Shown one piece after another: positions 8,565 through 51,000 of a stretch of DNA of 64,000 bases (positions are counted from its first letter, which is position 1; each line of letters starts with the position of its first letter). Both the position numbers and the translations under genes were made by a program. Under the pieces are notes generated by a model. The model searched no databases and had not been told where the DNA came from. It was given only the letters and a program-made list of their open reading frames with translations. This DNA comes from Dyadobacter sp. (GTDB lineage Bacteria > Bacteroidota > Bacteroidia > Cytophagales > Spirosomataceae): NCBI RefSeq assembly GCF_017744695.1, contig NZ_JAGIAS010000004.1, positions 143,303 to 207,302 on the forward strand, in the 5' to 3' direction.

Positions 8565-8622
8565 CCAAGGAAGTGCTCTACCGCATCGGCGGACCGCCCT
8601 GAGCTACAAAAGCATTGTTACT
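8565..8622 (-). pseudogene. Duplicated 5' half of tRNA-Thr(GGT) with a 15-bp insertion in the D-loop
   Basis: Identical to 8503-8545 except for GCATCGGCGGACCGC inserted at 8583-8597; stops within the anticodon, no T-arm or 3' acceptor. Confidence 0.9.
8583..8597. repeat. 15-bp GC-rich micro-insertion, copy 1 (variant)
   Basis: Minus strand reads GCGGTCCGCCGATGC(GGT); the empty site is visible in the intact tRNA-Thr. Confidence 0.8.
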
Positions 8623-8646
8623 AAAAGCATTGTTCTTAGAACCAAA

Positions 8647-8692
8647 AAGCGATTAGCGAAAGTTATCTATTGAATGTTTTCGCTAATCGCTT
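8647..8692 (-). terminator. Terminator-like hairpin between tRNA-Gly and tRNA-Thr
   Basis: Perfect 15-bp stem AAGCGATTAGCGAAA / TTTCGCTAATCGCTT, followed by Ts on the minus strand. Confidence 0.6.
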
Positions 8693-8710
8693 CGATGATG
8701 CTTCTAATTG

Positions 8711-8783
8711 AGCGGAAGACGAGGTTCGAACTCGCGACCTATAGCTTGGAAGGCTATCGCTCTACCAGCTGAGCTACTTCCGC
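8711..8783 (-). tRNA. tRNA-Gly (TCC)
   Basis: Acceptor GCGGAAG/CTTCCGC, anticodon arm ATAGC-CTTCCAA-GCTAT. Confidence 0.97.
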
Positions 8784-8846
8784 ATTTGTTTTCGTCTTTA
8801 CCTCAAGAACTGGCCTTAATTGAAGCATTTTTTCAGACTCAAACTG

Positions 8847-8929
8847 TGGGGGCGGATGGATTCGAACCACCGAAGACATAAGTCAGCAGATTTACAGTCT
8901 GCCCCATTTGGCCACTCTGGTACACCCCC
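8847..8929 (-). tRNA. tRNA-Tyr (GTA)
   Basis: Acceptor GGGGGTG/CGCCCCC, anticodon arm GCAGA-CTGTAAA-TCTGC, long variable arm. Confidence 0.97.
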
Positions 8930-8982
8930 AGACAACATTTCAACACAAGCGTGAAAACCGTTTGTTTCACAATTTGGAGTCG

Positions 8983-9013
8983 CAAAATTATACCCATTTT
9001 TTATATTCTCAAA
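8983..9013 (-). promoter_or_regulatory. Housekeeping promoter of the tRNA-tuf operon
   Basis: TTTG (9013-9010) - N19 - TAATTTTG (8990-8983): full Bacteroidota consensus. Confidence 0.8.
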
Positions 9014-9030
9014 TTCTTTTGAAAAAAAAT

Positions 9031-9077
9031 TAAAAAAAAATGTGGCCTGGAATCAAAAACGTCGATTCCAGGCCACA
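9031..9077 (-). terminator. Intrinsic terminator of the ECF/OMP triplet
   Basis: TGTGGCCTGGAATC / GATTCCAGGCCACA stem plus a long U-tract. Confidence 0.8.
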
Positions 9078-9093
9078 CGGGCACTTTTTTGAC

Positions 9094-10215
9094 TTAAAAC
9101 AATCTTACCCCAAAACTCAGCATCCGGACCGAAGGCCCCCGGTTGGCTTCGAAAAGATAGTTCAAATCATAGTTCACAAAGAAGTCAGGAAAGTTACGGA
9201 TACCAATTTCAGCAGCTAAACCGTAGCGCAAATCTTCGATGTAAAAGTTACGCCGGTCGTGGTCCACATCCTTCGTACCGACCTTGCGTACCTTGGTATA
9301 ACTGCCAATTCGATAACCACCGTAAGCACCCGCGCTGATGTACGATATGAATGAGTGTGAAAAACTCAGCGTAGGCATAATGGACAGGTTGACATAGGGC
9401 ACCACGAGCTTCGACTTTCTCACTTCCACCGGCTTACCCTGGTCATCGACAACTTGCCTGAACTCGACGCCGTCGTCGGTTTTGGCAATCGTATTATCGC
9501 CATCGTACATCATATTGTACCACGAAAAGTCGATGCCGAAGTCCAGATGAAGCCGGGCATCTTTTCCTTTGATCACATTGGCGCTGGCCACATAACCGAG
9601 GCTCACAAAACGCGATCCGAATGGTTTCAGGTCATAGTCCGATTTATTGAAGCCATTGGTAGCCTCATTGGTACCATAAGTATTCAATCCCAATGCGACA
9701 TTGAAACCCTTACGCGGGCTCGACCCGCCCCATGATTTTCCGTGAAACCGCTTACCGATGCGCCGGTAGGTCGAATCCGACCCGACGACGGCATCACCTT
9801 CCTTCACTTCCACGCCCGAGCCATCGATAGAAACCTTCGTGTCCCCATCCTTGATATGAATACCGCGGAGTCCAATTCTTACATAATCCTTATCGGCAGG
9901 CTGATCCGGGTTTTTCAAATACTTATTTCCGTTGAATTCCTCCCGCAGAAACGTCGTATCGGCCTGGGTACTGTCCAATCTTACTTTCAGATCTTTCAGT
10001 AATGCATTCAAATCATACTTCATGATCTTTTCCAGCTCCTGGCGGTTTTCGCCGTAAATGATTAGCCTCGTCTTATCACCGAATGTGACGATAATCGAAT
10101 CCTTATCCCGGCCGCCGGGCCATTCAAACTGATCATTGGATTTCAATGAACCAGCGCGCGCGCCAATGGCAACCAGCAGTACCAGCATTGCCATTGCATA
10201 TATTTTACTTTTCAT
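9094..10215 (-). CDS. Outer-membrane beta-barrel (porin-family) protein
   Basis: Signal peptide; C-terminal amphipathic strands ending in ...SFGVRLF; third gene of a sigma/anti-sigma/OMP triplet. Confidence 0.7.
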   Translation of the reverse strand: MKSKIYAMAMLVLLVAIGARAGSLKSNDQFEWPGGRDKDSIIVTFGDKTRLIIYGENRQELEKIMKYDLNALLKDLKVRLDSTQADTTFLREEFNGNKYLKNPDQPADKDYVRIGLRGIHIKDGDTKVSIDGSGVEVKEGDAVVGSDSTYRRIGKRFHGKSWGGSSPRKGFNVALGLNTYGTNEATNGFNKSDYDLKPFGSRFVSLGYVASANVIKGKDARLHLDFGIDFSWYNMMYDGDNTIAKTDDGVEFRQVVDDQGKPVEVRKSKLVVPYVNLSIMPTLSFSHSFISYISAGAYGGYRIGSYTKVRKVGTKDVDHDRRNFYIEDLRYGLAAEIGIRNFPDFFVNYDLNYLFEANRGPSVRMLSFGVRLF

Positions 10216-10226
10216 GGCACAAGAGA

Positions 10227-11063
10227 TTACAGTTTTGTCTTGTTTTTAGGGTGATCTTTTTCTGTACTTCTGTCTTCCTTGTTACGCAGGCGATCGTCCA
10301 CACGTGCTACAAGGTTTTTTGGATTAAATCCCACTTCATCCCAATCGACTTTCTCGCCTGCCCTCGCATTTTTGAGCTGGCGGAAAACCCTTGCAAACCG
10401 GGTATTACGTGGTTTCTCTTCCGCTTCACTAGGACCGGTCTCCACGGCAACGACAATCGTTCTTGTCGGCTCGGGCTCCGGCTTGTTTACCCGACTAACA
10501 GCTGGCTCATCGGGCAAAGTCTTAATACCCTGTGCAACAGGGATATTTGTAGATTCCGGCTGTATGGCATTCACCGGTATCTCCGGCTTTTCTGTAATTG
10601 CCACTGCCGGCGCATTCTGTATAAGTTCGGGGGTAGCGACAGGTGTCTCGATTACCTGTTTCGGAGCCTGACGCACCTCGGCTACATGGACGACTGGTTT
10701 AAGATTCCCTTGATTACTAGTAACCACTCCATTACTTTTCCCCTCCGCTGCCGCTAATTGTTCCACCGGTGCTTTTGAATTTTCAACCGGAGCAGTCATG
10801 GAATCTTTTTGAATCGGCTTGGCAGCTGCAATAGTTTGTTGCGGTTTAATACTTTCCGGCGAATTAACCTGCTGATTCTTCCAAACCAGGTAACCTCCCA
10901 TCACCGCCGCAGCCACACCGGCGGCGGCATACCAACCCCACACAGCCGGGCGACGTTTTACCGGCTGCTTTTCCTGAATTTTCAGCCACGCATTTTCCGA
11001 AGGTGTTCTTTGCGCTCCTTCGAGTTTGCGTTTGAAAAGATCATCAACAGGATGCTTTTTCAT
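10227..11063 (-). CDS. Putative anti-sigma factor module (own ATG at 11063)
   Basis: MKKHPVDDLFKRKL...W.KI N-terminus, one TM helix (WYAAAGVAAAVMGGYLVW), Pro/Ala/Glu-rich periplasmic part. Confidence 0.65.
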   Translation of the reverse strand: MKKHPVDDLFKRKLEGAQRTPSENAWLKIQEKQPVKRRPAVWGWYAAAGVAAAVMGGYLVWKNQQVNSPESIKPQQTIAAAKPIQKDSMTAPVENSKAPVEQLAAAEGKSNGVVTSNQGNLKPVVHVAEVRQAPKQVIETPVATPELIQNAPAVAITEKPEIPVNAIQPESTNIPVAQGIKTLPDEPAVSRVNKPEPEPTRTIVVAVETGPSEAEEKPRNTRFARVFRQLKNARAGEKVDWDEVGFNPKNLVARVDDRLRNKEDRSTEKDHPKNKTKL

Positions 11064-11633
11064 AGTCTTTTTTTTTTTATAATCATTCTGCCATTCCGCG
11101 ACCATTTTCTGCAACAATGCCCGGGCGCGGTGCAACTGTGATTTCGACGTACTTTCGGTAATGCCCAGCATTTGGGCTATTTCAATGTGTGCGTAGCCTT
11201 CGATGGCGTAGAGGTTAAAAACCGTCCGGTAACCTACCGGCAGCGCTTCGATCAATGCCATTAGCTCTTCGGTTTCCAGGTTTTGGTCAGCGTGGGTGTA
11301 ATCGGGAATGTTGTTAGCCTCATCCGAAAGGTTATCCTCCAGAATCCGCTTTTGTTTCCTCAGATAGCCCAGCGATTCGTTCACCATGATCCGCCTGATC
11401 CACCCTTCGAAACTTCCTTCGCTATTGAATTGATCTATTTTTTCAAATACCCTTAAAAAACCCTCTACCATCACATCCTCGGCCGCCATTTCATCGCATA
11501 CATAGCGGAAGCACAAAGCCAGCATCCGATGGCTGTACTTGTCGTAAAGCTGTCGCTGCGCCTTCGGATCTTCCTTCCTGAGAGCTTTGACGAGCTGTGC
11601 TTCCTGGCTAAATAGTGCTAAAATTCGACCCAT
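10227..11633 (-). CDS. ECF sigma-70 factor fused in-frame, through an A11 tract, to the downstream membrane anti-sigma-like protein
   Basis: Region 2 (AEDVMVEGFLRVF, FEGWIRRIMVNESL) and region 4 (LPVGYRTVFNLYAIEGYAHIEIAQMLGITESTSKSQLHRAR), then ...NDYKKKKT-MKKHPVDDLF with no stop; likely start ATG 11633. Confidence 0.85.
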   Translation of the reverse strand: MGRILALFSQEAQLVKALRKEDPKAQRQLYDKYSHRMLALCFRYVCDEMAAEDVMVEGFLRVFEKIDQFNSEGSFEGWIRRIMVNESLGYLRKQKRILEDNLSDEANNIPDYTHADQNLETEELMALIEALPVGYRTVFNLYAIEGYAHIEIAQMLGITESTSKSQLHRARALLQKMVAEWQNDYKKKKTMKKHPVDDLFKRKLEGAQRTPSENAWLKIQEKQPVKRRPAVWGWYAAAGVAAAVMGGYLVWKNQQVNSPESIKPQQTIAAAKPIQKDSMTAPVENSKAPVEQLAAAEGKSNGVVTSNQGNLKPVVHVAEVRQAPKQVIETPVATPELIQNAPAVAITEKPEIPVNAIQPESTNIPVAQGIKTLPDEPAVSRVNKPEPEPTRTIVVAVETGPSEAEEKPRNTRFARVFRQLKNARAGEKVDWDEVGFNPKNLVARVDDRLRNKEDRSTEKDHPKNKTKL

Positions 11634-11657
11634 TCTAATTGGTGGTTTCGACAGCAA

Positions 11658-11685
11658 GATGCGCATTCCTCTGCGTGAGGTTGCA
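11658..11685 (-). promoter_or_regulatory. ECF-type promoter upstream of the ECF sigma (autoregulatory candidate)
   Basis: TGCAAC-N16-CGCATC. Confidence 0.5.
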
Positions 11686-11765
11686 TGTGCCGGAAAAGTT
11701 TTTTGATATTATTTTTAGCTTTGATGCGAATATCACTCATTGATCACCAAAAGGACTTTTCTTCA

Positions 11766-12575
11766 ATGCTCGACTCCTCTGCGCCCATCGGAATTTTTGA
11801 CAGCGGAATCGGCGGTATGACCGTCGCCAGTGCTGTAACCCGGTTGCTTCCCCAGGAAAACACCATTTATTTCGGCGACACGGCGCATTTGCCTTACGGC
11901 GATAAATCCACAGCTGCCATTCAGGCGTATTCGATCAAAATCTGCAATATGCTCTTGCAGCAAAACTGCAAGCTGATCCTCATCGCCTGTAACTCCGCGT
12001 CCGCGGCCGCCTACGAGCTCGTACGCGAGTATGTAGGAAGCAAAGCGAAAGTCCTGAATGTGATCGATCCGGTGGTGGATTATGTGAAAGAGCATTATGA
12101 AGGGAAAACCATCGGCCTGATCGGTACCAAGCAGACCGTCCTCTCCAATGTATATAAAAAAAAGGTGGACGCGCTCGACAGGAATATTCACCTGAAATCA
12201 CTGGCTACCCCATTACTTGCCCCGATGATCGAGGAAGGTTTTTTTGATAATAATATCAGTGAAAGCGTAATTGCCAATTACCTCTCCGATCCATCTCTGA
12301 ATGGCATTGAGGCATTAATCCTCGGTTGCACGCACTATCCGTTAATCAAAACACAGATCCGAAAATTCTATGGCGATACCGTGGAGACGCTCGACACCTC
12401 CGAAATCGTCGCGCGTTCTCTGAAAGCCTGGCTCGAACAACATTACCTCATCAATGAGAAAGGCGAAGGCAAGCGGCAATTCTATGTGTCGGATTACACG
12501 TTGTCATTTGAGCAATCCACCAACATATTCTTCGGCCGGCAAATCCAGCTCGAACATTACCCGCTCTGGGAATAA
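11766..12575 (+). CDS. murI: Glutamate racemase
   Basis: IGIFDSGIGG, YFGDTAHLPYGDK, IACNSAS, LGCTHYP; start ATG 11766, with TAGCTTTG -7 element at 11716-11723. Confidence 0.97.
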   Translation: MLDSSAPIGIFDSGIGGMTVASAVTRLLPQENTIYFGDTAHLPYGDKSTAAIQAYSIKICNMLLQQNCKLILIACNSASAAAYELVREYVGSKAKVLNVIDPVVDYVKEHYEGKTIGLIGTKQTVLSNVYKKKVDALDRNIHLKSLATPLLAPMIEEGFFDNNISESVIANYLSDPSLNGIEALILGCTHYPLIKTQIRKFYGDTVETLDTSEIVARSLKAWLEQHYLINEKGEGKRQFYVSDYTLSFEQSTNIFFGRQIQLEHYPLWE

Positions 12576-12579
12576 GACA

Positions 12580-15102
12580 TTAATAGACCAACTTCACCGG
12601 ACCAAGCAAGCCTGAGGGCATGGGCTGCCAGCGTGTCGCGTCAAATTTTTTATAGGTAATGTCGACTATGTTGATATCGTAAAATTTCTTCCAGTCGGGC
12701 TGCTGCTGGTCACGGAGGCGCATGTAGTTGGCCGAAAGGTTGGTTACCTCGATTTCTAGAACATTGCCTTTTGATTTTAATGCCTCACCTGCGTACAATT
12801 GAAAGGGAATATGCCAAACGGTTCCAAGATCCTTCCCATTCAGTTTGACACTCGCCACTTCACGAACATCGCCCAGACTAATTCCAGCTCCTTCATATTG
12901 CTTTAATGGGCCTTTCAAATCGAAAACGATCCGATAGCGAGCCTTTCCCGAAAAGTATTCGGCAGAATCGGGTAATGTCGTCCAGGATTTGAGAGCCGTA
13001 AGTTTTGCGGGAGCTGGCAATGAAGGTTTACCGGTAATAAATGTGACCTCCCAATTTCCTTTAATTTCCAATTCTTTCACTACACCATCCACCATTGGGA
13101 TATCGGAACCGTCGGCAGCGCCTTCCAGGAAACAGGATTCTCCCGGGGGAAGGTCTAAATATACCTCATCGTGGCCGCCCACCGTCCGGATTTGCATCAG
13201 TGACTCTCCCCGAAGCGGCGTATTCCGCGACATCATTTCGCCCTTCCCGATTCGCACCCAACCGCCTTTGAACGTATTCCCAAGGTTTGACACAAAATAC
13301 AAAGGCAGGCCATTTTCACTCTTCTTCCTGATAAATGTGAGCCCTTTCTCCGCCAATTGCTCTTTCACCACGTCGTTTGCCGCCAAATCTGCATTCAAAT
13401 CTGTGGAAACTTTTACATTGCCAAGTTTTGAAATGCCTGCCAGCTTTTGCGTAAACGCGTTCTGCCGGGCCTCGTGATCCGCATTACCTGTTACAATTTT
13501 GGGCAATTGCTTATCAAAAATGATTTTAGCGCCCGCGTTTGCAAGCCGCAGAAGTTCTGCCAAGGTTTCATCCGGGAAATAGGTTGTCGAAGGGATCACC
13601 AAAGTCTTGTAGCTAGCATTCCCGGAACTTAGCAACCCGTTTGTATCGACCGTAAATTTCTTCAACTGCAAATCCGACACAAAATCGAATGCATATCCTT
13701 CCTTCCAAAGCCTTTCTGATAGCTTTCCAAAGGGCAGATCCAACAACCAGCGATCGACGTGGTGTACTTCCAGCAAATGTACGCCGCCACCCGATTTGGC
13801 TTTCGTAGCCCACAAATCATGGATCGGGAAATAGACCAGCACATCGTTGTCCGGCTTACTATCCTGCAATAGCGCCTGGCACCATTCGACATATCGGTTC
13901 AGGAGTGGAAAGTGTTCGGAGAAATGGGAGGTTTTGCCAAAATTGGTAGAAGCGTAAAACAGCCAGCCGGGAAAGCTTTCCTTTTCGGGGGAATAGGTAG
14001 TGCCGTGATAAAAAATGTGGTTGATCCCCGCTGTAAAAAGCTCGTCGATCTGCGGTTTGATTTGAGATAACGAAACCTTGAAATGATTGGCAAGCCAGGT
14101 ACCGGTCTCTGAACTTACCAATTTCTTGCCCGACAAATTTGCAGCCGACGAAGCGAACTTCATCGCCAGCGGATTCGGCGTACCGAATTGGTCGATCGAA
14201 TAATCGGGATCGACGCGCAGGCCTGGGATATTGAAACGGCTGGTACCAAATGATTCCGTTTCGGGAATGTCGGCCGCCTCGTAAAGATCCAGGAGGTTAC
14301 CCGGCGAACCGTGCGCCTGGTAGCGCGTCACAAATCCGTGCGCACGGCTCCACTCGGTCCAGGGTTTGGCATAGCGTTCGAAAAGCAGTTCGGCAAGCGT
14401 CTGGTGATAATCTATTTTGACTAATGTGGCCTCCGGGGTTCCGGTCGAGTCATTCAATAATGACAGCTTGGCCAGCAGGTCATATTTCCGGCGTGATTGA
14501 AACTGTTTTGCAAAATCGTCCGTCCAATTAGCGCCATAGGCTTCATAGGAATCATTATACATCGCCCTTGGCTTCGCGGAAGTCTTGCTGAATACCGAAT
14601 CAAACCGCGAAAGATATTGCTGCATTCCATTTGCACTGAACGGATCCAGCACCAACCCTTCCCCGCCAGGAGCGGCACGCTTCACTTTCTGGCCAGTTGG
14701 TTTTACCACCGGTTTCCCATCCACGACAGTCATACTTTGTGCCGCAATTGCCGCCGTCACATTCGGACCACCGAACGGCCAGCCGGTCCCTGTGGTCATG
14801 TCCACGCCCAATCCGAGACGTTTCCCTTCCCGCACGGTATATTCCATGACATCGAGCCATTGAGCTCCCAGGAAAGAGAGCGCCGCTTTTTCATACCCTT
14901 TCGCCCCGTAAATTGGAATAATATGTACGCCACCGAGCCCCGATTTGCTGAAATATTCCAGCTGGGCGGTGATATCCGCTTTGGTGACCGCGCTGCCCAT
15001 CCACCACCAGTAAGTCCAGGGTTTGGAGGTCGAAAGCTTTTGTGCATTGCTATGGGCAAACAGTGCGAATATCAGAAGGACAGCGAGTAGAATCCGGCGC
15101 AT
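12580..15102 (-). CDS. Glycoside hydrolase, GH106 (alpha-L-rhamnosidase)-like
   Basis: KPWTYWWWMGSAVT, GLGGVHIIPIYG, DMTTGTGWPFGGP, DSYE, C-terminal LGDVREVASVKLNGKDLGTVW...SGLLGPV; signal peptide. Confidence 0.75.
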   Translation of the reverse strand: MRRILLAVLLIFALFAHSNAQKLSTSKPWTYWWWMGSAVTKADITAQLEYFSKSGLGGVHIIPIYGAKGYEKAALSFLGAQWLDVMEYTVREGKRLGLGVDMTTGTGWPFGGPNVTAAIAAQSMTVVDGKPVVKPTGQKVKRAAPGGEGLVLDPFSANGMQQYLSRFDSVFSKTSAKPRAMYNDSYEAYGANWTDDFAKQFQSRRKYDLLAKLSLLNDSTGTPEATLVKIDYHQTLAELLFERYAKPWTEWSRAHGFVTRYQAHGSPGNLLDLYEAADIPETESFGTSRFNIPGLRVDPDYSIDQFGTPNPLAMKFASSAANLSGKKLVSSETGTWLANHFKVSLSQIKPQIDELFTAGINHIFYHGTTYSPEKESFPGWLFYASTNFGKTSHFSEHFPLLNRYVEWCQALLQDSKPDNDVLVYFPIHDLWATKAKSGGGVHLLEVHHVDRWLLDLPFGKLSERLWKEGYAFDFVSDLQLKKFTVDTNGLLSSGNASYKTLVIPSTTYFPDETLAELLRLANAGAKIIFDKQLPKIVTGNADHEARQNAFTQKLAGISKLGNVKVSTDLNADLAANDVVKEQLAEKGLTFIRKKSENGLPLYFVSNLGNTFKGGWVRIGKGEMMSRNTPLRGESLMQIRTVGGHDEVYLDLPPGESCFLEGAADGSDIPMVDGVVKELEIKGNWEVTFITGKPSLPAPAKLTALKSWTTLPDSAEYFSGKARYRIVFDLKGPLKQYEGAGISLGDVREVASVKLNGKDLGTVWHIPFQLYAGEALKSKGNVLEIEVTNLSANYMRLRDQQQPDWKKFYDINIVDITYKKFDATRWQPMPSGLLGPVKLVY

Positions 15103-15187
15103 GATTTGGACAGTGTTTTTCTTTAAAGACGCACGCAGCATTATCTACGCCACTACAAGGGAATATTTTGTCAAACCCCAAAACATC

Positions 15188-15218
15188 AAAAAGGCAGGAC
15201 CGCATTGGCCCTGCCTTT
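15188..15218 (-). terminator. Terminator of the ACIII/oxidase operon
   Basis: AAAGGCAGG / CCTGCCTTT stem plus U-tract. Confidence 0.65.
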
Positions 15219-15237
15219 GAATATCTTGCTTTGTAAA

Positions 15238-15519
15238 TCAGTTCTCGTACGCCGACCGCACGCGCGCCGCTACGAACTGGCGCTCGGCTTGCGCCCGTTT
15301 CGAGTTGCGGTACCAAAGGTAACCGATCACTGCTACGAGGATGTAGGGAATCACAAACAGGAACATGATACCGGTGTTCAAACCTACACCTACATTATTC
15401 CGTCCGTTCCCCATGGAGCTTTCCACCGACCCGCGACACATCGCGCATTGTGCAAATGCACCCGCGCTATTCATGACGAACATGATTACCAATCCGGATA
15501 TTGCCAAAAACTTTTTCAT
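15238..15519 (-). CDS. Small membrane protein with a CAMC motif, oxidase-cluster associated
   Basis: Signal-like N-terminus, AQCAMC, one TM helix; 4-nt overlap with the DUF420 stop. Confidence 0.7.
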   Translation of the reverse strand: MKKFLAISGLVIMFVMNSAGAFAQCAMCRGSVESSMGNGRNNVGVGLNTGIMFLFVIPYILVAVIGYLWYRNSKRAQAERQFVAARVRSAYEN

Positions 15520-16055: not shown

Positions 16056-16061
16056 ACCCAC

Positions 16062-16658: not shown

Positions 16659-16667
16659 TCTATTCTA

Positions 16668-17003: not shown

Positions 17004-17034
17004 TTTACTTCAATTTTAAATATTGTCCTATAAT

Positions 17035-17805: not shown

Positions 17806-17819
17806 TGATAAAAAAATTA

Positions 17820-34320: not shown

Positions 34321-34580
34321 AATGGTCAGGGTTAGTCAGGTATTGTCAGGAAGTAGCGGTCCGCCGCGCGGTCAAGTGTTGTCGGGAGATAGTCGAACGT
34401 TGTCAGGTGTAGTCAGGAGGTGGTCAAGTATATTCAGGTATGGCCAGAGATAGTCGGGGAATAAAATCGGAGAAGACTTGATCCAGGTATCGAAAGAGTA
34501 CGTGTGACAACCAATGACTATTCCTGACCACACCTGACACCTCCTTCAACCTCCTGACAATACCTGACCACAAATAACAA
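34321..34580. repeat. Inverted array of degenerate 10-bp tandem repeats (GTCAGG arm / CCTGAC arm)
   Basis: GTC cores at 34325, 34335, 34345, (34371), 34381, 34392, 34402, 34412, 34423, 34453; TGAC cores at 34505, 34515, 34525, 34535, 34555, 34565. Confidence 0.9.
34356..34370. repeat. 15-bp GC-rich micro-insertion, copy 2
   Basis: GCGGTCCGCCGCGCG splits a repeat unit, AAGTA|GTCAAG. Confidence 0.8.
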
Positions 34581-39482: not shown

Positions 39483-40829
39483 TTAATAGTCTCCCAGACT
39501 CTCGTCTTTTTTACCAATAATGCCGGTAATATTGTCCCAAAACGTTCCGTTGCGTTTTGGTTGCTCTTTGGCTTCTTTTACGGGTTCTTTCTGCACGACA
39601 TTGCCGGTATTGAAAGCCGATGCAGGTTTGCAAACCGATTTCACCCGTGGATCCACTGACTTCAATCCGGCCCAGGCCAGTCCGATAGCAGTATTGAACG
39701 AAGCATTGCTTACCGCATCCGCTTTCGCCGTCCGGTCCAGGTTTTCGGGATAGCCTACGCGTACCGACATGTCAGTGATCCTTTCGAACAATGCCTCGAT
39801 TTCCGGGATATTCGCCGAACCGCCTGTCAGCACGAGTCCGCCGATCAGTCTGTCGGCGTAACCCGATTTAATGATCTCCGCATAAACCATCGCCGCGATT
39901 TCCTTCAAACGCTCTTCGATGATCAATGCCACATTCTTTTTCAAAACCGGCTTCGGTTGGCGGCCTGCCAGGTAATTGATCAGGATTTCGACATTCAAAG
40001 GAACATCTGCGGACACCGCCACACCATATTCTTTTTTCAAATGCTCCGCATTCTCGAACTGAATGCCACAGCCTACCTCCAAGTCGGAAGTAATGTGCCG
40101 TCCGCCGATCGGGAATGATGCAATATGACGCACAATGCGGTCGTGATAAATGATCACGTCCGTAGTATGGTCGCCGATATCCACCATCGCAATACCGGCT
40201 TTCATTTCATTGTCGGTCAATACAGCCAGGCTGGTTGCCAGTGGAGCTAATACCAGCTTATCGCATTTTAGCGCCTGGTCCGCTTCGGCAAGGCTTTTCT
40301 TGGTACGCAATACCGACTGGCTGTTCGCAGACACCACCAGGAAGTTACCTCCCAGTTTAATACCCGTGCGGCCTACCGGCTCGCGTACGCCCGTCGAGTT
40401 ATCGACCGTGAAATCCATCGGTAGTACATGCAGCACGTCGAAATTCGGTTCGATTTTCGCCCGGTACATGTCATCAACCAGTTGGTCTACATCCCGCTGC
40501 GTTACTTCCTCGCCCGATGACGCCGAAGGCCGGATCACCCCGTCGCTCTGCGCGCTCACCTTCACGTGCGTGCCCCCGAAGCTTACATTGACTATACCAA
40601 TATCGAGATCCGAACGTGAACCAGCTTCCGCCAGTGCTTCCTTGATCGCGCTGCCAACCTGTTTAATGTTTTCAACGGAGCCGTTTACTACTGCTCCCGA
40701 CGGCACAGGGACTTCGCTGAAGCCCAAAATCTCGATATTGTTCCGGCGCGTCGCTGAGCCTTGCGCAGCCACCACCGTTATTTTAGTACTTCCAATATCT
40801 ACCCCAACTACAATCTTATCGTGTGCCAT
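39483..40829 (-). CDS. ftsA: Cell division protein FtsA
   Basis: VGVDIGSTKI, VDIGDHTTD, GLVLTGGSA. Confidence 0.97.
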   Translation of the reverse strand: MAHDKIVVGVDIGSTKITVVAAQGSATRRNNIEILGFSEVPVPSGAVVNGSVENIKQVGSAIKEALAEAGSRSDLDIGIVNVSFGGTHVKVSAQSDGVIRPSASSGEEVTQRDVDQLVDDMYRAKIEPNFDVLHVLPMDFTVDNSTGVREPVGRTGIKLGGNFLVVSANSQSVLRTKKSLAEADQALKCDKLVLAPLATSLAVLTDNEMKAGIAMVDIGDHTTDVIIYHDRIVRHIASFPIGGRHITSDLEVGCGIQFENAEHLKKEYGVAVSADVPLNVEILINYLAGRQPKPVLKKNVALIIEERLKEIAAMVYAEIIKSGYADRLIGGLVLTGGSANIPEIEALFERITDMSVRVGYPENLDRTAKADAVSNASFNTAIGLAWAGLKSVDPRVKSVCKPASAFNTGNVVQKEPVKEAKEQPKRNGTFWDNITGIIGKKDESLGDY

Positions 40830-43059: not shown

Positions 43060-43068
43060 ATCTTGGGG

Positions 43069-44166: not shown

Positions 44167-44167
44167 G

Positions 44168-45322
44168 TTAAATGCGTTTTTCCTCCACGATTTCCCCCCG
44201 GCTCACGCTGAGGATCATGCCCATTGCAATACCCGTGAAAAGCAGCGACGTTCCACCCTGACTAAAAAACGGCAGCGTTTGCCCCGTTACCGGCACTAAA
44301 CCTACGGTTACCGCCATCGCAGAAAATGCCTGGCTCACCACGATAAATGTCAGTCCGGCCGATAGCAACCCGCCAAACGGCCGCTTCGTCGCTTCGATCG
44401 CTTTCAGACCCCGGTACAACAGGATCAGGTACAGGATGATCAACGCGGTACCACCCAGCGTGCCGTACTCCTCCACCGCGACCGCGAAAATGAAGTCTTT
44501 CTGAGGCTCCGGAAGAAAGCGGCGTTGGCGGCTTTTGGAAACACCTTCCCCGTACAATCCACCGCGGGCCATTGCCATATAGGATTGCTGCGATTGGTAA
44601 ACCACTACGTCCTTGTCAAAAAACGTAGATATCCGGCTTTGCGCCGTTCCGGAACGCTGTGTGGAGTTAAGCAAAATGGCGATCGTCGCAAAAAACACCA
44701 GGCCGAGCGCCGTGAATGCCAGGTAATGCAGCGGAACTTTGCCTACGAACATCAGCAAAAAGCAAATACCCGCCAGCATTACGGCCGTCGATACGTTACT
44801 CACGAAAATCAGCCCGCATACGACACCTACGAGCGCGAGCGGTTCCATGAAGAGCTCACGGGTATTCCAGCCGCCTTTGATATGCCGCGCAAGAATCAGC
44901 GACAAATGCGCTACCAGCGCCACCTTGGCCCATTCCGAAGGCTGGAAGCGCTGGCCGATCACCGGGATCTCAATCCAGCGGGCTGCATCATTCACCGATC
45001 TCCCGAAAAACATCGTGAATATCAAAAGCAGAATGGAGCTCCAGACCGCAAGCCGCGTTACATACACGAATTTGATATAAGGCACCCGGTGGACGAAATA
45101 CATCACGCCGAGCGACAGCACGCACAGCAATGCATGTTTATAAAGGTAATATTCGGTATTACCGTCCATCTGGCTGTAAGCGTCCTTCACCGAAGCACTG
45201 TACACCACCACAATGCTCCACATCAGCATGATAATGCATATCCCCCATATCCAGGGGTCACCTTTGAGGTTTTTGCTAAACCATGCCTGGGTATCTTCCC
45301 TTGTTTTGTTCAGGAAATCCAT
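44168..45322 (-). CDS. ftsW: SEDS family peptidoglycan glycosyltransferase FtsW
   Basis: ARWI, FQPSEWAK, LPEPQKDFIFAVAVEEYG, TGQTLPFFSQGGTS. Confidence 0.95.
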   Translation of the reverse strand: MDFLNKTREDTQAWFSKNLKGDPWIWGICIIMLMWSIVVVYSASVKDAYSQMDGNTEYYLYKHALLCVLSLGVMYFVHRVPYIKFVYVTRLAVWSSILLLIFTMFFGRSVNDAARWIEIPVIGQRFQPSEWAKVALVAHLSLILARHIKGGWNTRELFMEPLALVGVVCGLIFVSNVSTAVMLAGICFLLMFVGKVPLHYLAFTALGLVFFATIAILLNSTQRSGTAQSRISTFFDKDVVVYQSQQSYMAMARGGLYGEGVSKSRQRRFLPEPQKDFIFAVAVEEYGTLGGTALIILYLILLYRGLKAIEATKRPFGGLLSAGLTFIVVSQAFSAMAVTVGLVPVTGQTLPFFSQGGTSLLFTGIAMGMILSVSRGEIVEEKRI

Positions 45323-45354
45323 ATTGTTTGGCGGCTAATATTGGATTGTTGAGT

Positions 45355-45395
45355 TATTGTCAAGTATAGTCAGGGATTGTCAGGAAAGAGTCATG
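45355..45395. repeat. Four-unit 10-bp GTCA(G/A)G tandem repeat, same family as 34321-34580
   Basis: TATTGTCAAG TATAGTCAGG GATTGTCAGG AAAGAGTCATG, directly after the murD stop. Confidence 0.75.
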
Positions 45396-46734
45396 AAAGT
45401 AGATTTCTGACAGCAGCTTTGAACTGATCACCCCGGTCTTCATAGTTTTTGAACAAATCAAAACTCGCGCAGGCGGGCGAAAGCAGAACGATATCTCCCG
45501 GCACGCCCCATTCCCGCCCTTTGTTGACGGCATCCTGGACGTCCTCGGTCGCGTAAATTTGCGGGACTTTGCCTGAAAAATAGTTTTCAAGCTTCGCCGG
45601 GTCCTTCCCCAGCACGATCAGTCCTTTCACTTTATTCTTTACCAGCTCTTCAATTTGTGAATAATCATTCCCTTTATCCACACCACCGGCAATCAGGATC
45701 ACCGGCTGGTTGAAGCTGCCCAATGCGTAGAAAACGGAATCCACATTGGTAGCCTTGGAATCATTGATATAGGTTACCCCATTGATCACTTCCACCTGTT
45801 CGAGTCGGTGGGGCGCATTGGTGAACGACTTCAATCCTTCGCTGATCTTTTCCGCATCGACGCCCAGCAACTGTGCAACCGAAATCGCCGCCAGCGCATT
45901 GATCGCATTATGCGGACCTTTGATCGGCAATTCACCGAATGCCTGCGCAAATGCACGGCCATTAATACTGGAAATCAACTGCCCGTTTTCAAGGTACGAA
46001 CCTGAGTCCAATGCATTTTCCAGCGAAACTTGCACCTTCCCAACCGTCGGGTTTCGCTTTTCGAGCTCCTTCTCAATCACTTCACTCTCCTTATAGTAAA
46101 TGAAATGATCTGAGGCCGTCTGGTTACGGATAATATTGAATTTGGAATTCACATAATTCTGGAAATCATACCCATAACGATCGAGGTGATCGGGAGTGAT
46201 ATTCAGGAGAACGGAAATATAAGGGTGGAAATCAACAATATTATCCAGTTGGAAACTACTGATTTCCAATACATAATAATCAAAATGCTTTTCGGAAACG
46301 GCCCAGGCGAAGCTGTCGCCGATATTGCCTGCCAAGCCTACATTCAGCCCTGCGGTTTTGAGCAAATGATAGGTAAGTAAGGTGGTAGTGGTCTTGCCGT
46401 TACTACCCGTAATCGCAATCAGTTTCGCATCCGTATAGCGCGAGGCGAACTCGATTTCGGAGATCACCGGAATGCCCTTTTCTTTCAATGCGACGATCAG
46501 AGGCACTTTATCGGGAATGCCCGGACTCTTTACCACGAGGTCGCTTTCGAGGATGCGTCCCTCCGAATGCTGCCCCTGTTCAAATGGAATATTTTTACTG
46601 TTCAGAATGTCCGCGTACTTCTGATGCAACTGGCCCTTATCCGATAAAAAAACTTCAAAACCTTTGGATTTCGCGAGGATCGCCGCGCCTGCGCCGCTTT
46701 CTCCGCCACCCAGAATCGTCACCTTTTTTTGCAC
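45391..46734 (-). CDS. murD: UDP-MurNAc-L-Ala--D-glutamate ligase
   Basis: ILGGGESG, ITGSNGKTTTT, LEISSFQL, PHRLE, NDSKATN, LLSPACASFD; start GTG 46734 preferred (TTG 46767 possible). Confidence 0.97.
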   Translation of the reverse strand: MQKKVTILGGGESGAGAAILAKSKGFEVFLSDKGQLHQKYADILNSKNIPFEQGQHSEGRILESDLVVKSPGIPDKVPLIVALKEKGIPVISEIEFASRYTDAKLIAITGSNGKTTTTLLTYHLLKTAGLNVGLAGNIGDSFAWAVSEKHFDYYVLEISSFQLDNIVDFHPYISVLLNITPDHLDRYGYDFQNYVNSKFNIIRNQTASDHFIYYKESEVIEKELEKRNPTVGKVQVSLENALDSGSYLENGQLISSINGRAFAQAFGELPIKGPHNAINALAAISVAQLLGVDAEKISEGLKSFTNAPHRLEQVEVINGVTYINDSKATNVDSVFYALGSFNQPVILIAGGVDKGNDYSQIEELVKNKVKGLIVLGKDPAKLENYFSGKVPQIYATEDVQDAVNKGREWGVPGDIVLLSPACASFDLFKNYEDRGDQFKAAVRNLLS

Positions 46735-46800
46735 TAGAATCGAATTAAAGCGTTGAACAATCTGCAATAACCACGAAGGTAAATCATTTGCCGAATGGAT

Positions 46801-46834
46801 AAAAAAAGAGGCACACGAAATATGCCTCTCTTTT
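46801..46834 (-). terminator. Terminator after mscL
   Basis: AGAGGCA / TGCCTCT with U-tract. Confidence 0.65.
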
Positions 46835-46859
46835 GTTATTTATGAACCTTAAAGCAGTT

Positions 46860-47189
46860 CTACTCCTTCTTCAACGATTCGGATAATTTCAATCGATTGG
46901 CTGCTTTTACAATCAGGAAGATCACCCAGGCGATGAGCAGGAACTGAATCATGGTCTGGATAAAGTTTCCGTATCGGATCGCTACTTCCGGGGTTTCACC
47001 GACGGCTTCTTTCAGCACAACCTTAAGTTGTGTAAAATCCACTCCGCCGAGGATCAGCCCGAGGATCGGGTTGATAATGTCCTCTACCAACGAAGTAGTG
47101 ATTTTCCCGAACGCCGCACCGATAACGACACCGACTGCAAGATCCAGCACGTTGCCCTGGGCAATGAATGTTTTAAATTCTTTTAGCAT
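46860..47189 (-). CDS. mscL: Large-conductance mechanosensitive channel
   Basis: [36 protein letters not shown]. Confidence 0.96.
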
Positions 47190-47214
47190 AACAAGATGAG
47201 GTTAGTTGATTAGA

Positions 47215-48147
47215 TTAAAAAGCAAATAAAAAGCCTATGCTGAGGGCCTGAGCAAACTGGATTTTGTTGCTCTGGTCTTCGTCGTAAACCATAATGGCGC
47301 CGAGATTGACATTGACATACTTGTTGATCTTCGCTGTCAGCTGGGCGTCCAGACGGTTATCTATATTCAAAGGGTGCTTGAAGCTGGAAAACATCAGATA
47401 CCGGAATTTCAGATTGACGTCCTTCGCGATATCCTTGTCAAAATTGGCTACCAGCTGGATCAGGGCCGCTTCCGTACGCACGCGCTTGCCGATGGGTACG
47501 CCATAATTCTTCTGGTCGGGCGTATTAACGTACAAATCCTTGTCGACGACGATCGTCTGCCGCAATGCCCCGGGCGCAAGGTCAACAAAGAAATACGGAA
47601 CGGGACGGTATTCGATACCGATCGCCTCGGTCAGGTAGGCAGGAGCAAGAATGCCCGAGACCTTCTTTTTGAACTTCACCGTATCCTTCTCCGACGAATA
47701 TTCATAACCGTTGCCAAACTGCGAAAGGAAGTTGACATTGGCGAAAAGGCTCCATTTAGCTGTCAGTTCGCGGTTGTACTTGGTATCGAAGAAGATCCGG
47801 TCGACGTTTTTGCGACTTTGCTGGCCCTTGTTACGGACGATACCATACTGTCCCTGGAAGTCATTTCTCCACGAATTCTTACCCACTTTCTTCTCGCTCA
47901 ATGCGTTCAGAAAAAGGCCCAGTGCGATCGAGTTGACGCCACCACCCGTCCAGTTGGAACTGAATGAGCCCTGGTTCAGGTTGGCGCCGAATTCGATTTT
48001 GTGCCAGGCGGTGTCATTAGCGGTTTTCAACCGGCCTGAATTGATCGAATTGGTGAGATCAACTTTGTTTTGGGAAACGGCCGGGAATGTCAGAAGTGCG
48101 AGTAAAGTTAAGGCAATAAAGGATGTGCGTTGAAGTTTTTGGCTCAT
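47215..48147 (-). CDS. DUF3078 family outer-membrane protein
   Basis: Signal peptide; LNQGSFSSNWTGGG, RKNVDRI, APAYL, C-terminal F. Confidence 0.8.
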   Translation of the reverse strand: MSQKLQRTSFIALTLLALLTFPAVSQNKVDLTNSINSGRLKTANDTAWHKIEFGANLNQGSFSSNWTGGGVNSIALGLFLNALSEKKVGKNSWRNDFQGQYGIVRNKGQQSRKNVDRIFFDTKYNRELTAKWSLFANVNFLSQFGNGYEYSSEKDTVKFKKKVSGILAPAYLTEAIGIEYRPVPYFFVDLAPGALRQTIVVDKDLYVNTPDQKNYGVPIGKRVRTEAALIQLVANFDKDIAKDVNLKFRYLMFSSFKHPLNIDNRLDAQLTAKINKYVNVNLGAIMVYDEDQSNKIQFAQALSIGFLFAF

Positions 48148-48192
48148 TGTCAATGTGTTTAGTGGACCATACTCATTAAATTTCCATGGTTT

Positions 48193-48218
48193 TACGACTA
48201 ACAAATGAGGAGGTTGCG
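48193..48218 (-). promoter_or_regulatory. ECF-type promoter upstream of DUF3078-mscL
   Basis: CGCAAC-N16-CGTA, between the ECF sigma stop and the DUF3078 start. Confidence 0.5.
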
Positions 48219-48245
48219 GTCAAAGTAAAGCAATTTCCGACGCTT

Positions 48246-48848
48246 TCAAAAAAAATTGCCACCTTCTGAAAGTTTATGATACCACTTGCGGAGCTTCCTT
48301 CTCGAACGCATCAGGCGCATCTTAACTGCACTTTCGGTAATCCGGAAGAGGCTTGCAATGTCACGGATACTGCGGTCGTCGAGGTAGCGGAGGTAAATCA
48401 TCGCCTTGTCTTCCAGGCCGAGCAAATCGAGTGCTTCTTTGAGCATCACCAGATTTACATCTTCCTCAAATAAGCCTTGCAGGCAAAATTCTTCTTTCCC
48501 TGCGCCTTCGGGCGTTTCAGCCTCGAGCACAAGAACGACCCGGCGTTTACTGCCGCGTGCGAGGTCCATGCAATGATTATGCGTGATGGTAAAAAGCCAG
48601 GTGGAGAATTTGGAACCGGTCTTAAATGAGCTCATTTTATGGATCAGTTTAAGAAAGACATCGTGCATAATGTCTTCGGCGCGGGTGGCGTCCTTGGTGA
48701 GCGTGACGCATTTTTGATAAACCTTGACGGCATAACGCTCGTAAAGTTTCTGAAAATGACGATTGTCCCTTGATTCGAGGAAGAATCTAACTAATTCTTC
48801 ATCTGTCGAATTATGCTCCGAACAGGAATTACTCCGTAAATCAACCAT
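48246..48848 (-). CDS. ECF sigma-70 factor (no adjacent anti-sigma)
   Basis: AEDIMHDVFLKL, FSTWLFTITHNHC, SIRDIASLFRITESAVKMRLMRSR. Confidence 0.9.
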   Translation of the reverse strand: MVDLRSNSCSEHNSTDEELVRFFLESRDNRHFQKLYERYAVKVYQKCVTLTKDATRAEDIMHDVFLKLIHKMSSFKTGSKFSTWLFTITHNHCMDLARGSKRRVVLVLEAETPEGAGKEEFCLQGLFEEDVNLVMLKEALDLLGLEDKAMIYLRYLDDRSIRDIASLFRITESAVKMRLMRSRRKLRKWYHKLSEGGNFF

Positions 48849-48917
48849 TCTGCCTGATGAAATGCCGCCGATAGCGTGTGTCGAAAATTAAATTGCATTT
48901 AACTTTCTGTAAATATG

Positions 48918-48959
48918 AAAAAACAACGCCTGGTATACAAATTAGATACCAGGCGTTGT
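48918..48959 (-). terminator. Terminator after tsf
   Basis: ACAACGCCTGGTAT / ATACCAGGCGTTGT plus U-tract. Confidence 0.8.
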
Positions 48960-48984
48960 CAATATATTTTGTTGCTGAAAAGGC

Positions 48985-49821
48985 TTATCCGCCGATCGCT
49001 ACGCGTTTGAAGGTAGTAACAGTCAAACCTTTTGAAGTTTTCTCAAGCAGCTGACGGATAGTCAGTGAAGAATCTTTCACGAACTCCTGGTTCAACAGGG
49101 TGCTGTCTTTGTAGAACTTCTGCAATTTACCCTGAGCGATTTTCTCAAGCATTGCCTCAGGCTTGCCTTCTGCACGTGCCTGCTCTTTACCCACTTCGAT
49201 TTCGCGCTCGATAGTAGCAGCGTCGATACCGTCTTTATCCAGAGCTACTGGCTTCATCGCTGCAATTTGCATCGCTACGTCTTTACCCAGTTCAGAAACA
49301 TCCGTTCCGTTAACGCCGGCGAATGCTACCAACACACCCAGTTTACCGTTTGAGTGGATGTAAGGAACCACTTTATCCGCTGAAACGCTTTCGTAAGCAG
49401 TGATTTCCAGTTTCTCTCCCAACTTACCTGTCAGTTCCACCATGTGCTCTGACACAGGACGACCGTCAGCCAAAGTTGCAGCCAAAAGGGCATCTTTGTC
49501 AGCGATGTTATCCGCTACTGCTTTGTCAAGGATAGATTGTGCAAGGTTTTTGAAATCTTCCACGTTCGATACAGGCTCAGTTTCGCAAGCCAACGCAACG
49601 AGTTTACCATTGGTGCCGTCAGCGCTGATGTTGATCAGAACAGTTCCTTCTGATACAGCATTGTCAGCACGTTTTGCAGCTACTTTCTGTCCTTGTTTAC
49701 GGAGAATATCAACGGCCTTGTCGAAATCGCCATCTGCTTCCTGCAGGGCTTTTTTACAATCCATCATGCCCGCGCCGGTCATTTGGCGGAGTTTGTTTAC
49801 ATCTTGTGCGGTAATTGCCAT
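48985..49821 (-). CDS. tsf: Elongation factor Ts
   Basis: KLRQMTGAGMMDCKKALQE, CETEPV, MQIAAM, LLNQEFVKD. Confidence 0.98.
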   Translation of the reverse strand: MAITAQDVNKLRQMTGAGMMDCKKALQEADGDFDKAVDILRKQGQKVAAKRADNAVSEGTVLINISADGTNGKLVALACETEPVSNVEDFKNLAQSILDKAVADNIADKDALLAATLADGRPVSEHMVELTGKLGEKLEITAYESVSADKVVPYIHSNGKLGVLVAFAGVNGTDVSELGKDVAMQIAAMKPVALDKDGIDAATIEREIEVGKEQARAEGKPEAMLEKIAQGKLQKFYKDSTLLNQEFVKDSSLTIRQLLEKTSKGLTVTTFKRVAIGG

Positions 49822-49915
49822 GATCGTGATAAATATTATGTATTAATGTTTTGTAGTGAAAGGGCCGTTAACCGGGGATGATCAAATGGTTAAGGAATCC
49901 CTTCGCAAGAATTTT

Positions 49916-49952
49916 AAAAAAACGTAGCCCATAGCAAGAGGCTATGGGCTAC
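49916..49952 (-). terminator. Terminator/attenuator between rpsB and tsf
   Basis: GTAGCCCATAGC / GCTATGGGCTAC plus U-tract. Confidence 0.75.
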
Positions 49953-50004
49953 CGTATATGTCAAGTATGGCGAGTTATTTAAAAACTACACCATATTGCC
50001 CTTT

Positions 50005-50823
50005 TTACTCTTCGTCGGATTCAGCAACTTCTGCTTCTGCCGCAACTTCGGCGCGAGGGGCTGCCTCTTCACCTTTGTCAGCTGCGCGTTTTGCTTCTTC
50101 TTCCTCTACCAGGCGCTGATCGTCTTTATCTTGTTTGCGTTCCATCAAACCTTCTTCGATAGCCTTACCGATCGCCAGGGTGATCAACGAGATTGCTTTG
50201 TAAGCATCGTCGTTAGATGGGATAGGGAAGTCAACCAATTCAGGGTTTGAGTTGGTATCGCAGATCGCAAAAATAGGGATGTTCAATCTTTTTGCTTCTG
50301 CAACCGCAATGTGCTCGCGTTTTACATCAACGATGAAAAGTGCCGCTGGAAGGCGAGTAAGGTCCGCTACACCACCTAGTACTCTTTCCAGTTTCTCCTT
50401 TTCACGTGTAAGCATCAGGCGTTCTCTTTTCGCAATATTGCTAACCGTGGCTTCGTCTTTCAGCATCTTCTCGAGAGTCTGCATTTTTTTCAAAGACTTG
50501 CGAATTGTGCCAAAGTTTGTCAGCATACCACCCAACCAACGATCAGTCACGTAAGGCATTTTAAGGCGTTTCGCCTCTTCCGTTACGATTTCCTGCGCTT
50601 GTTTTTTAGTAGCAACAAACATGATCTTACGTCCTGAACGAACGATCTGTTTCAGCGCAGCTTCCGCTTCGCCAAGGCAGCTCAAAGTTTTGTTCAGGTC
50701 AATGATGTGGATCCCGTTCTTCTCCATGAAGATATACGGAGCCATCCGTGGATCCCACTTGCGGGTAAGGTGACCAAAGTGGACACCTGCATCCAATAGT
50801 TCTTTATATTCTATTTGTGCCAT
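50005..50823 (-). CDS. rpsB: 30S ribosomal protein S2
   Basis: LLDAGVHFGH, RWLGGMLTNF, DTNSNP...PIPSNDD. Confidence 0.98.
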   Translation of the reverse strand: MAQIEYKELLDAGVHFGHLTRKWDPRMAPYIFMEKNGIHIIDLNKTLSCLGEAEAALKQIVRSGRKIMFVATKKQAQEIVTEEAKRLKMPYVTDRWLGGMLTNFGTIRKSLKKMQTLEKMLKDEATVSNIAKRERLMLTREKEKLERVLGGVADLTRLPAALFIVDVKREHIAVAEAKRLNIPIFAICDTNSNPELVDFPIPSNDDAYKAISLITLAIGKAIEEGLMERKQDKDDQRLVEEEEAKRAADKGEEAAPRAEVAAEAEVAESDEE

Positions 50824-50900
50824 TGCCAAATTTGATTTAAAATATTTTTAGACTTGTTACGCAGCACGAAGCATCGGGCACGATAAGCGACGTCTGGACT

Positions 50901-51000
50901 TGTGGAGTTCAAAGTTTATGAGTAAATGAGTTGAAAGTGATAAAATAAACACTGAACTCATGGACTCTAAACTCATGCACCGCGCGGCGGACCGCTCATT
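50901..51000. repeat. Inverted array of degenerate 7-8-bp repeats (GAGT arm / ACTC arm) between rpsI and rpsB
   Basis: RAGT cores at 50905, 50912, 50920, 50928, 50935; ACTC cores at 50956, 50964, 50971, and 50979 (split). Confidence 0.8.
50981..50995. repeat. 15-bp GC-rich micro-insertion, copy 3
   Basis: CGCGCGGCGGACCGC, the exact reverse complement of 34356-34370; splits GCAC|TCATT. Confidence 0.8.

Follow-up and report, generated by a model that had tools for sequence, protein, structure and literature searches.

In a 64,000-nt stretch of the genome of Dyadobacter sp. (contig NZ_JAGIAS010000004.1, positions 143,303 to 207,302; hereafter the window), three copies of a GC-rich mini-insert were identified, which can with high confidence be assigned to a genuine insertional repeat family with units of 15–16 nt. 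The family shows discrete insertion, empty sites, family-wide spread, covariation of the hairpin stems, inverted doublets and a defined spectrum of host sites. The favored explanation, to which a probability of about 0.45 is given, is an ultra-short element similar to repetitive extragenic palindromes (REPs), which is non-autonomous and is moved in trans as a single-strand hairpin, possibly by a nickase of the Y1 type such as a REP-associated tyrosine transposase (RAYT). The window is part of contig C12 of a 7.83-Mb assembly with about 50% GC, which is called G000 in the following; other genomes and their contigs carry G and C numbers as well.

Copy 1 (GCGGTCCGCCGATGCGGT) reads GCGGTCCGCCG-AT-GCGGT and copy 2 (GCGGTCCGCCGCGCGGT) reads GCGGTCCGCCG-C-GCGGT. 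Copy 3 has the same 17-mer as copy 2 on the other strand (Table 1). The motifs were located again at the three places named in a preliminary description of the window, and a renewed reading of the sequence confirmed copies 2 and 3 as reverse complements, which are identical over 18 nt with one flanking A included. The sites had been called unrelated, which does not hold, as two of them belong to the arms of a single class of fold-back array. By chance, about 0.02 exact 11-mers are expected per window and about 0.0006 17-mers per genome. A scan of the window allowing one mismatch yielded 5 matches compared to a mean of 1.15 in shuffles; two one-mismatch matches at 40097 and 41881 are without the remaining parts of the motif and look like chance hits. 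In a search of the window for RNA families, only tRNAs were found.

Six exact copies are present in G000, where about 0.0006 were expected, four of them on C12. Near copies, searched for with a Hamming scan, are located at C12:253012 and C15:363581. The 11-mer has 10 matches in this genome in total, none of which lies in a CRISPR array or in an RNA-like gene, and none belongs to a longer source sequence. Across the genus, the pattern GCGGTCCGCCG-N1-3-GCGGT has about 160 matches in 50 of 62 Dyadobacter species genomes (0–11 per genome), whereas the reversed pattern has 1. A copy number above chance, as had been proposed, is therefore confirmed. In a sample of the Cytophagales, 26 of 301 genomes were positive, including 14 of 21 from the same family. 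The highest copy numbers outside Dyadobacter were found in G204 (66), G110 (36) and G099 (32), with a range of 14–66 in some other genera. All pattern searches demanded exact stems, so that decayed copies are under-counted, and the landing contexts given below were counted on about 84 unique sites picked among the exact matches. Chance or artefact as the origin of the motif was ruled out by the control patterns, and an assembly artefact is very unlikely because the same insert occurs in dozens of independent assemblies. The contig C8 of G000 (556 bp, 74% GC; C7 has 605 bp), whose composition is foreign to the genome and which is probably a contaminant, was considered as motif source and rejected, as it is without the motif.

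The insertions are discrete. Inserts with a 3-nt loop add a net 15 nt and those with a 4-nt loop 16 nt, with exceptions by one base at copy 1 (15 nt, 4-nt loop) and at one sister copy. Four well-defined empty sites show precise junctions on both sides, and a target duplication was found in none of the comparisons between filled and empty sites. A gene for an ISL3-family transposase is uninterrupted in G000 (C3:252539-252688, DILNFFNN, gaagaa|GTT), and its three copies in G041 carry 16 nt between gaagaa and GTT. For copy 2, the orthologous units in G002 and G064 read GGAAGTAG(C/T)CAAGTGTTGTC without insert. This clean 15-bp empty site bears out the earlier proposal that removal of 15 nt restores the repeat unit. 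The corresponding removal at copy 1 restores the D-loop of the intact tRNA-Thr gene 77 bp away. The empty orthologous alleles that had been predicted were thus found in clean form for copy 2; at copy 3, the closest relative G002 (flanks 93% identical) is without the insert, but a 6-bp indel at the 5′ junction makes this empty site unclean. In several species, disrupted tandem copies of tRNA-Lys(TTT), tRNA-Thr and tRNA-Val lie beside intact ones and provide the exact sequences before and after the event. In the rpsI-rpsB spacer, the insert was found at differing positions in G000, G011, G014, G013 and G017 and is absent in G002, G012 and others. Together with the excess of genus copies over the single control match, these empty sites support the earlier view of a very small inserted element below the size of REPs and of miniature inverted-repeat transposable elements (MITEs), which has no transposase in its vicinity. 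The array in this spacer varies between species in unit type and length, with 87–93% identical flanks, and G010 has no array there.

The unit opens with a 5′-GCGGW leader, followed by a GC-rich stem of 4 bp, a CGN or CGNN loop and three nucleotides of the returning stem, whose fourth base is the G of the target. This junction G is assignable neither to the insert nor to the target. Each of the loop variants (C, CC, CT, AT, CA, TT, TC, GG and others) is found in identical form at many unrelated sites, with leader and stems kept, which suggests spread from copy to copy. Sister families were identified in tRNA copies; their leader is unaltered, but both sides of the stem have changed (CGGC/GCCG and TCGC/GCGA, compared to CCGC/GCGG). 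One sister insert, GCGGA-CGGC-CGCT-GCC|G, sits at the T-arms of three different tRNAs. It is without the direct GCGGT repeat and has kept the hairpin, so that the repeat, although present in all three sites of the window as described before, is not essential. The base following GCGG, tested without requiring a final GT, was T in about 160 cases, C in 23, A in 11 and G in 7. The preliminary rule that each insert is placed 5′ of GT therefore applies as a preference (T ~80%) and not as an obligation. On its 5′ side, the insert is bordered by A/T-rich sequence, and position -5 is T in 56 of 83 unique sites. Short tandem runs of insert-like units of 15–16 nt were observed in G000 on C10 at ~314214-314270 (CGGACCACCGCTGTGG x3) and on C15 at ~57828-57860 (counted on the minus-strand read; CGGWTCGCCGGGCGA x2), which may be head-to-tail arrays of sister elements.

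Most intergenic copies were found in fold-back arrays, in the arms of which units of 7–10 bp are repeated (GTCA, GTTCA, GTTTATGA, GTTAAAG, CACGAAG, GTCGTAA, GAATGA). Matching array types flank four PF05635 genes (four-helix-bundle, 23S rRNA intervening sequence) of G000, all located outside the window (C12:393012-393326, C14:258327-258641, C15:204769-205083 and C11:396246-396542), and the two arrays of the window are therefore regarded as gene-less relatives of these cassettes. The PF05635 cassettes of G000 contain no motif copy themselves. Each PF05635 gene lies between inverted short-unit arrays, the unit of which differs by locus (TAGGC/AAGC, GTTTATGAG, GTCA, GAATGA). A PDDEXK_3 (PF13366) nuclease as partner is absent from G000. 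The densest motif cluster seen in Dyadobacter is a tandem block of about 400 bp in G044 (C14:28000-30300) with four exact and several decayed copies in GTTAAAAG-type arrays.

Further landing sites are the loops of GTCACNCTGAGC...GTCGAAG hairpins and a resident REP family with the consensus AGGTGCAGNGCACCGNAANANTTGTAGA (GGTGCNNNGCACC-N9-GTAG). Seven independent copies were placed exactly between the TT of the REP spacer and its GTAG tag, and two of these REP-tag insertions (G055 and G014) adjoin a conserved RAYT gene within that RAYT's own REP. In tRNA genes, the insert is located in the D-loop (5′ of GTAG), the anticodon loop or the T-arm (5′ of GTTC) of duplicated gene copies. The matches in coding sequences are nearly all in transposase genes of insertion sequences (ISs), with at least 12 insert positions in IS3, IS66, ISL3 and IS1182 genes (IS3 orfA two sites, IS3 orfB three, ISL3 two, also IS66 and IS1182). 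In addition, one tyrosine recombinase (integrase) and one protein with a tail of the type IX secretion system were hit. The 15-nt copies in coding sequences are in frame, as had been anticipated, but the expectation that the reading frame is kept fails for the 16-nt copies, which cause a +1 frameshift. Identical insert-bearing IS3 copies are found at contig ends of G003, so the IS multiplied after gaining the insert. This spectrum of IS genes, tRNA loops, REPs and fold-back arrays agrees with the earlier statement that repetitive or hairpin-forming DNA is targeted.

Two observations were made beside these landing sites. In G003, G001, G006 and G008, the orfA genes of diverged IS3-family elements are interrupted at one shared codon (after ...FFNW-N) by an identical 16-nt insert. 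Either transposition of the IS tolerates the +1 frameshift, or the codon is a strong hot spot. A RAYT-like Y1 gene of G000 (C14:111586-111927) lies at a conserved locus, and AGGTGCAGNGCACCGNAANANTTGTAGA REPs are found in the ~350 bp upstream of it. There are 37 such hairpins in G000, in which the hairpin comes first and GTAG follows after 9 nt on its 3′ side, whereas textbook REPs have GTAG ahead of the hairpin. Three other Y1 genes of G000 have their own differing flanking hairpin repeats (CGTCGACTNNAGTCGACG type and others). RAYT/Y1 genes of G000 are located, for example, at C14:111586, C11:726244, C15:403246 and C17:344562.

The locus of copy 1 was compared across 29 Dyadobacter species. 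In 17 of them, the spacer between tRNA-Gly and tRNA-Thr is plain without any pseudo-copy, and 10 show the arrangement of the window, a pseudo-copy of the 5′ half with the AT-loop insert. At the D-loop site, G000 is longer by 77 bp than G060 and G040, a gain that comprises the insert and the partial duplicate. G009, G063 and G050 have other duplicates, which carry sister inserts at the T-arm and, at the D-loop site used in the window, an insert with a 3-nt loop. In G009 and G050, the junctions of the duplication start with motif-like sequence at the hot spot of the T-arm; breaks at these sites thus seem to end either in an insertion or in a local duplication. Events that destroy the sole functional tRNA copy would be removed by purifying selection. 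A seeming 100% conservation of this tRNA-Thr copy was recognized as ascertainment bias, as retrieval independent of the motif yielded decayed orthologues. The insert is not specially conserved here, since the motif has decayed in G052 and G071.

In G204, about half of the 66 copies occur as inverted doublets (~15), which are spaced 50–105 bp apart and whose two arms share one loop variant. These doublets are situated within fold-back arrays, which start few bases after stop codons, around a conserved GCTCCGCC...GGCGGAGC hairpin. Doublets were also found in contig C15 of G000 and in G060. Motif pairs of G204 with a distance of 3–9 kb were checked as possible composite elements and turned out to be separate terminator-like hairpins at gene ends.

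According to the favored explanation, the REP-like element would spread from copy to copy within and between the genomes of Dyadobacter, other Spirosomataceae and some other Cytophagales. It would land 5′ of G(T) in DNA which is able to fold when single-stranded, i.e., array arms, the boundary of REP tags, tRNA loops and A/T-rich stretches of IS genes. An HUH enzyme of the Y1 class (RAYT or IS200-type), acting in trans, would recognize leader and hairpin on single-stranded DNA, cut the element at both ends and join it into another nick 5′ of G(T). If the free 3′ end primed synthesis instead, local duplications like those at the tRNA loci would be formed. A mechanism of the REP/REPIN type (REPINs being REP doublets that form hairpins) is suggested because of the leader with hairpin, the occurrence as singletons and doublets, the missing target duplication and the landing at the REP tag boundary and at a GTAG beside a tRNA stem. 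Of 62 Dyadobacter genomes, 61 contain Y1_Tnp genes; the assignment of the movement to a Y1/RAYT enzyme is only tentative.

Several results weigh against this explanation. The RAYT genes examined in G000 and in G204 with its 66 copies are flanked by other REP families and none by the motif. Neither the presence nor the number of Y1 genes is tied to the number of copies (three genes and 10 copies in G041, one gene and seven copies in G003). The leader is GCGGW (GCGGT or GCGGA) and neither GTAG nor CGTC, the dinucleotides at the junctions do not fit the published rule of complementarity between tag and cleavage site (PMC8266576), and G000 has far fewer copies than is usual for a REP. Copies on the plus and minus strands alternate irregularly within 100 kb of C12 and along the 5.58-Mb chromosome of G204, whose origin is unmapped, and there is no replication-strand bias of the IS200/IS605 type. 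Folding energies of -4 to -5.5 kcal/mol are no better than those of shuffled GC-rich controls and a mutually exclusive hairpin, GCGG-TCCG-CCGC, can be formed alternatively. As the folding energy is not significant compared to shuffles, the structural case rests on the covariation. Finally, part of the spread may be due to movement of larger fold-back elements or to conversion among them.

This last point leads to an unlikely alternative, in which the motif is immobile alone and is a module of fold-back array elements (the arms of PF05635 cassettes and their gene-less derivatives), spreading together with them or by arm conversion. It would account for the location of most intergenic copies in such arrays, for the arrays of the same types (GTCA, GTTTATGAG, GAATGA) around the PF05635 genes of G000, for the association of given loop variants with given array types, and for the symmetry in G204, where the motif stands in both arms by the conserved central hairpin directly after stop codons. 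However, clean inserts of 15–16 nt without any array sequence were found in transposase genes, an integrase gene, tRNA loops and REPs. Moreover, in orthologous arrays the insert alone is present or absent or sits at different units, and the PF05635 cassettes of G000 lack it. Quite improbable is a templated insertion, in which a polymerase or reverse transcriptase would prime on a nick 3′ of AC (the complement of GT) and copy a short dedicated template, before repair seals the far end. Such an enzyme would write a fixed hairpin of 15–16 nt 5′ of G(T) at self-folding DNA, and the insert would not be a selfish transposon. The constant sequence, a homology to the target (G/T) on one side only and the restriction of irregularities to the 5′ junction (the leading G missing in one sister copy, the 6-bp deletion at copy 3, duplications at tRNA loci) are in line with it. 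On the other hand, at least eight loop variants recur unchanged, also in both arms of doublets, for which many templates would be needed. The 10 matches of the 11-mer in G000 included no longer motif-bearing sequence and no RNA-like gene, and four empty sites are precise at both junctions. If such writing took place, it would in effect silence or mark repeated or mobile DNA by insertion, breaking transposase genes (from four IS families), REP tags, duplicated copies of tRNA genes and an integrase gene. In a sub-variant of this improbable reading, the 16-nt inserts in IS genes would be read through or bypassed and the IS would stay active.

The chances are small that the insert is the excision footprint of a larger element with both termini left joined, for which ends of the form GCGGTCCG... 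and ...CGCGCG would be expected. The constant sequence is indeed made up of the overlapping palindromes GCGGTCCGC and CCGCGCGG, a target duplication is lacking, and tRNA genes and REPs are landing places of ISs and integrative elements. Yet no longer element bounded by both halves was seen in G000, the pairs at 3–9 kb examined in G204 are the separate hairpins mentioned above, the spacers of doublets are locus-specific, and the compensatory stem changes in the sister families argue for selection on the hairpin. Least credible is a functional motif which arose or was kept by selection, e.g., as a GC clamp for terminators or as a protein site (it contains CGGWCCG), and which is not mobile DNA. 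Many copies do lie in hairpins right after stop codons, but many independent origins of an identical 17–18-mer are implausible, old orthologous copies decay (G052, G071), and the motif occurs in transposase frames, where it causes frameshifts, and in tRNA pseudo-copies. The insertions in coding sequences and tRNA genes already largely refute this possibility, although a function after insertion is possible at some sites.

Table 1. Positions of the mini-inserts, their host structures and an adjoining gene in the window.
Feature	Position	Strand	Remarks
Mini-insert copy 1, 4-nt-loop 'AT' variant	8580..8597	-	Immediately precedes GTAG in the D-loop of a tRNA-Thr pseudo-copy; net 15 nt compared to the intact gene
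tRNA-Thr(GGT) partial tandem duplicate carrying copy 1	8545..8634	-	5′ flank, acceptor strand, D arm, shortened anticodon arm
Intact tRNA-Thr(GGT), paralogous 'empty site'	8464..8536	-	
Mini-insert copy 2, 3-nt loop	34356..34372	+	Separates GGAAGTA from GTCAAG by 15 inserted nt in a GTCA-unit array
Fold-back array hosting copy 2	34321..34580	.	~10-bp units, GTCA in the left and TGAC in the right arm; gene-less counterpart of PF05635-flanking arms
Mini-insert copy 3, 3-nt loop	50979..50995	-	Located where a GAGTT/GTTCA-unit fold-back array starts, 3 nt past the rpsI stop codon
Fold-back array hosting copy 3, rpsI-rpsB spacer	50901..51001	.	
rpsI (ribosomal protein S9)	50999..51385	-	Stop codon abuts the array and copy 3

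Next to the array of copy 3, a block of about 45 nt upstream of rpsB (window 50840-50900, minus strand) with the sequence GTCCAGAC(G/A)...CTTATCGTGCCCGATG...GTGCTGCGTAA is near-invariant across Dyadobacter with variable surroundings. It matched none of the Rfam families and could be an rpsB leader or regulatory RNA.

Among the known systems, the REP/REPIN-RAYT elements are similar in having a short leader and a hairpin with conserved stem and variable loop (PMC3116915, PMC3333891, PMC8266576, PMC3733652). Like the insert, they occur as singletons and as inverted doublets forming long hairpins, cause no target duplication, and are mostly extragenic, often just after genes and now and then inside them, in genomes rich in RAYTs. 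REP/REPIN elements are cut and rejoined as single strands by the RAYTs, which are Y1 HUH enzymes (PMC3116915, PMC3333891, PMC8266576) and act at dinucleotides chosen by the tag (PMC8266576). The smallest REP cited has a 5-bp stem, 2 nt and GTAG (PMC8266576). The Dyadobacter unit differs from published REPs of ~20–40 nt by its length of 15–17 nt, the 4-bp stem, the GCGGW leader, the lack of a RAYT flanked by the motif and the 0–11 copies per Dyadobacter genome. Unlike REPs, it also enters other REPs, tRNA loops and many transposase genes.

Insertion without duplication by a short target and the dependence on a DNA hairpin are shared with IS200/IS605 elements, which differ in having two sub-terminal hairpins instead of one, a target of 4–5 nt instead of 1–2 nt and a strand bias. 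The insert does not fit the description of a MITE (target-site duplication and terminal inverted repeats matching an IS), as filled and empty sites show no duplication and no IS with matching ends was seen. The GC clusters and byp elements of yeast mitochondria are short GC-rich palindromic inserts of 30–50 nt in A/T-rich spacers and genes, and translational bypass is documented for the byps. The insert resembles them in being short, GC-rich, palindromic and located in spacers and genes; they differ in being organellar, eukaryotic and longer. Small dispersed repeats (SDRs) are reportedly cyanobacterial and 21–27 nt long. The insert shares with them a discrete module, precise insertion at a short target and recognition by the comparison of filled and empty sites, as known for SDR4-6 of Nostoc (Elhai et al. 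2008, Genome Res 18:1484, cited in PMC3116915 and PMC4390886). SDR5 inserts precisely between the third and fourth bases of HIP1, according to PMC4390886, which cites Elhai 2008. The differences from SDRs are the length of 15–16 nt, the occurrence in Bacteroidota and a target of only G(T) with an A/T-rich 5′ side.

A text search of the literature for the motif sequence returned unrelated primer matches only. The insert is shorter than any bacterial insertion element that we could find described, belongs to another phylum than the SDRs, has its own leader, and no cognate gene was found. The preliminary suggestion of an undescribed system is tempered by the relatives in print (REP/REPIN, SDR) and by the doublets in another genus. 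To our knowledge, the landing spectrum in transposase and tRNA genes has not been reported.

The way in which REP-like and other very small repeats spread is unsettled even for the REPs of E. coli. For this question, the mini-insert offers clean study material, namely a unit of 15–16 nt with exact empty sites, dozens of independent landings in known original sequences such as tRNA genes and IS reading frames, sister families with compensatory stem changes, and genomes with 0–66 copies within one bacterial family. The question of the enzyme is made directly testable by phylogenetic profiling and by cleavage and joining assays in vitro. The insert also affects genome annotation, as it causes frameshifts in transposase genes, lengthens proteins by five residues in its 15-nt form, and is a mark of tRNA pseudo-copies which resemble integration scars but are not such.

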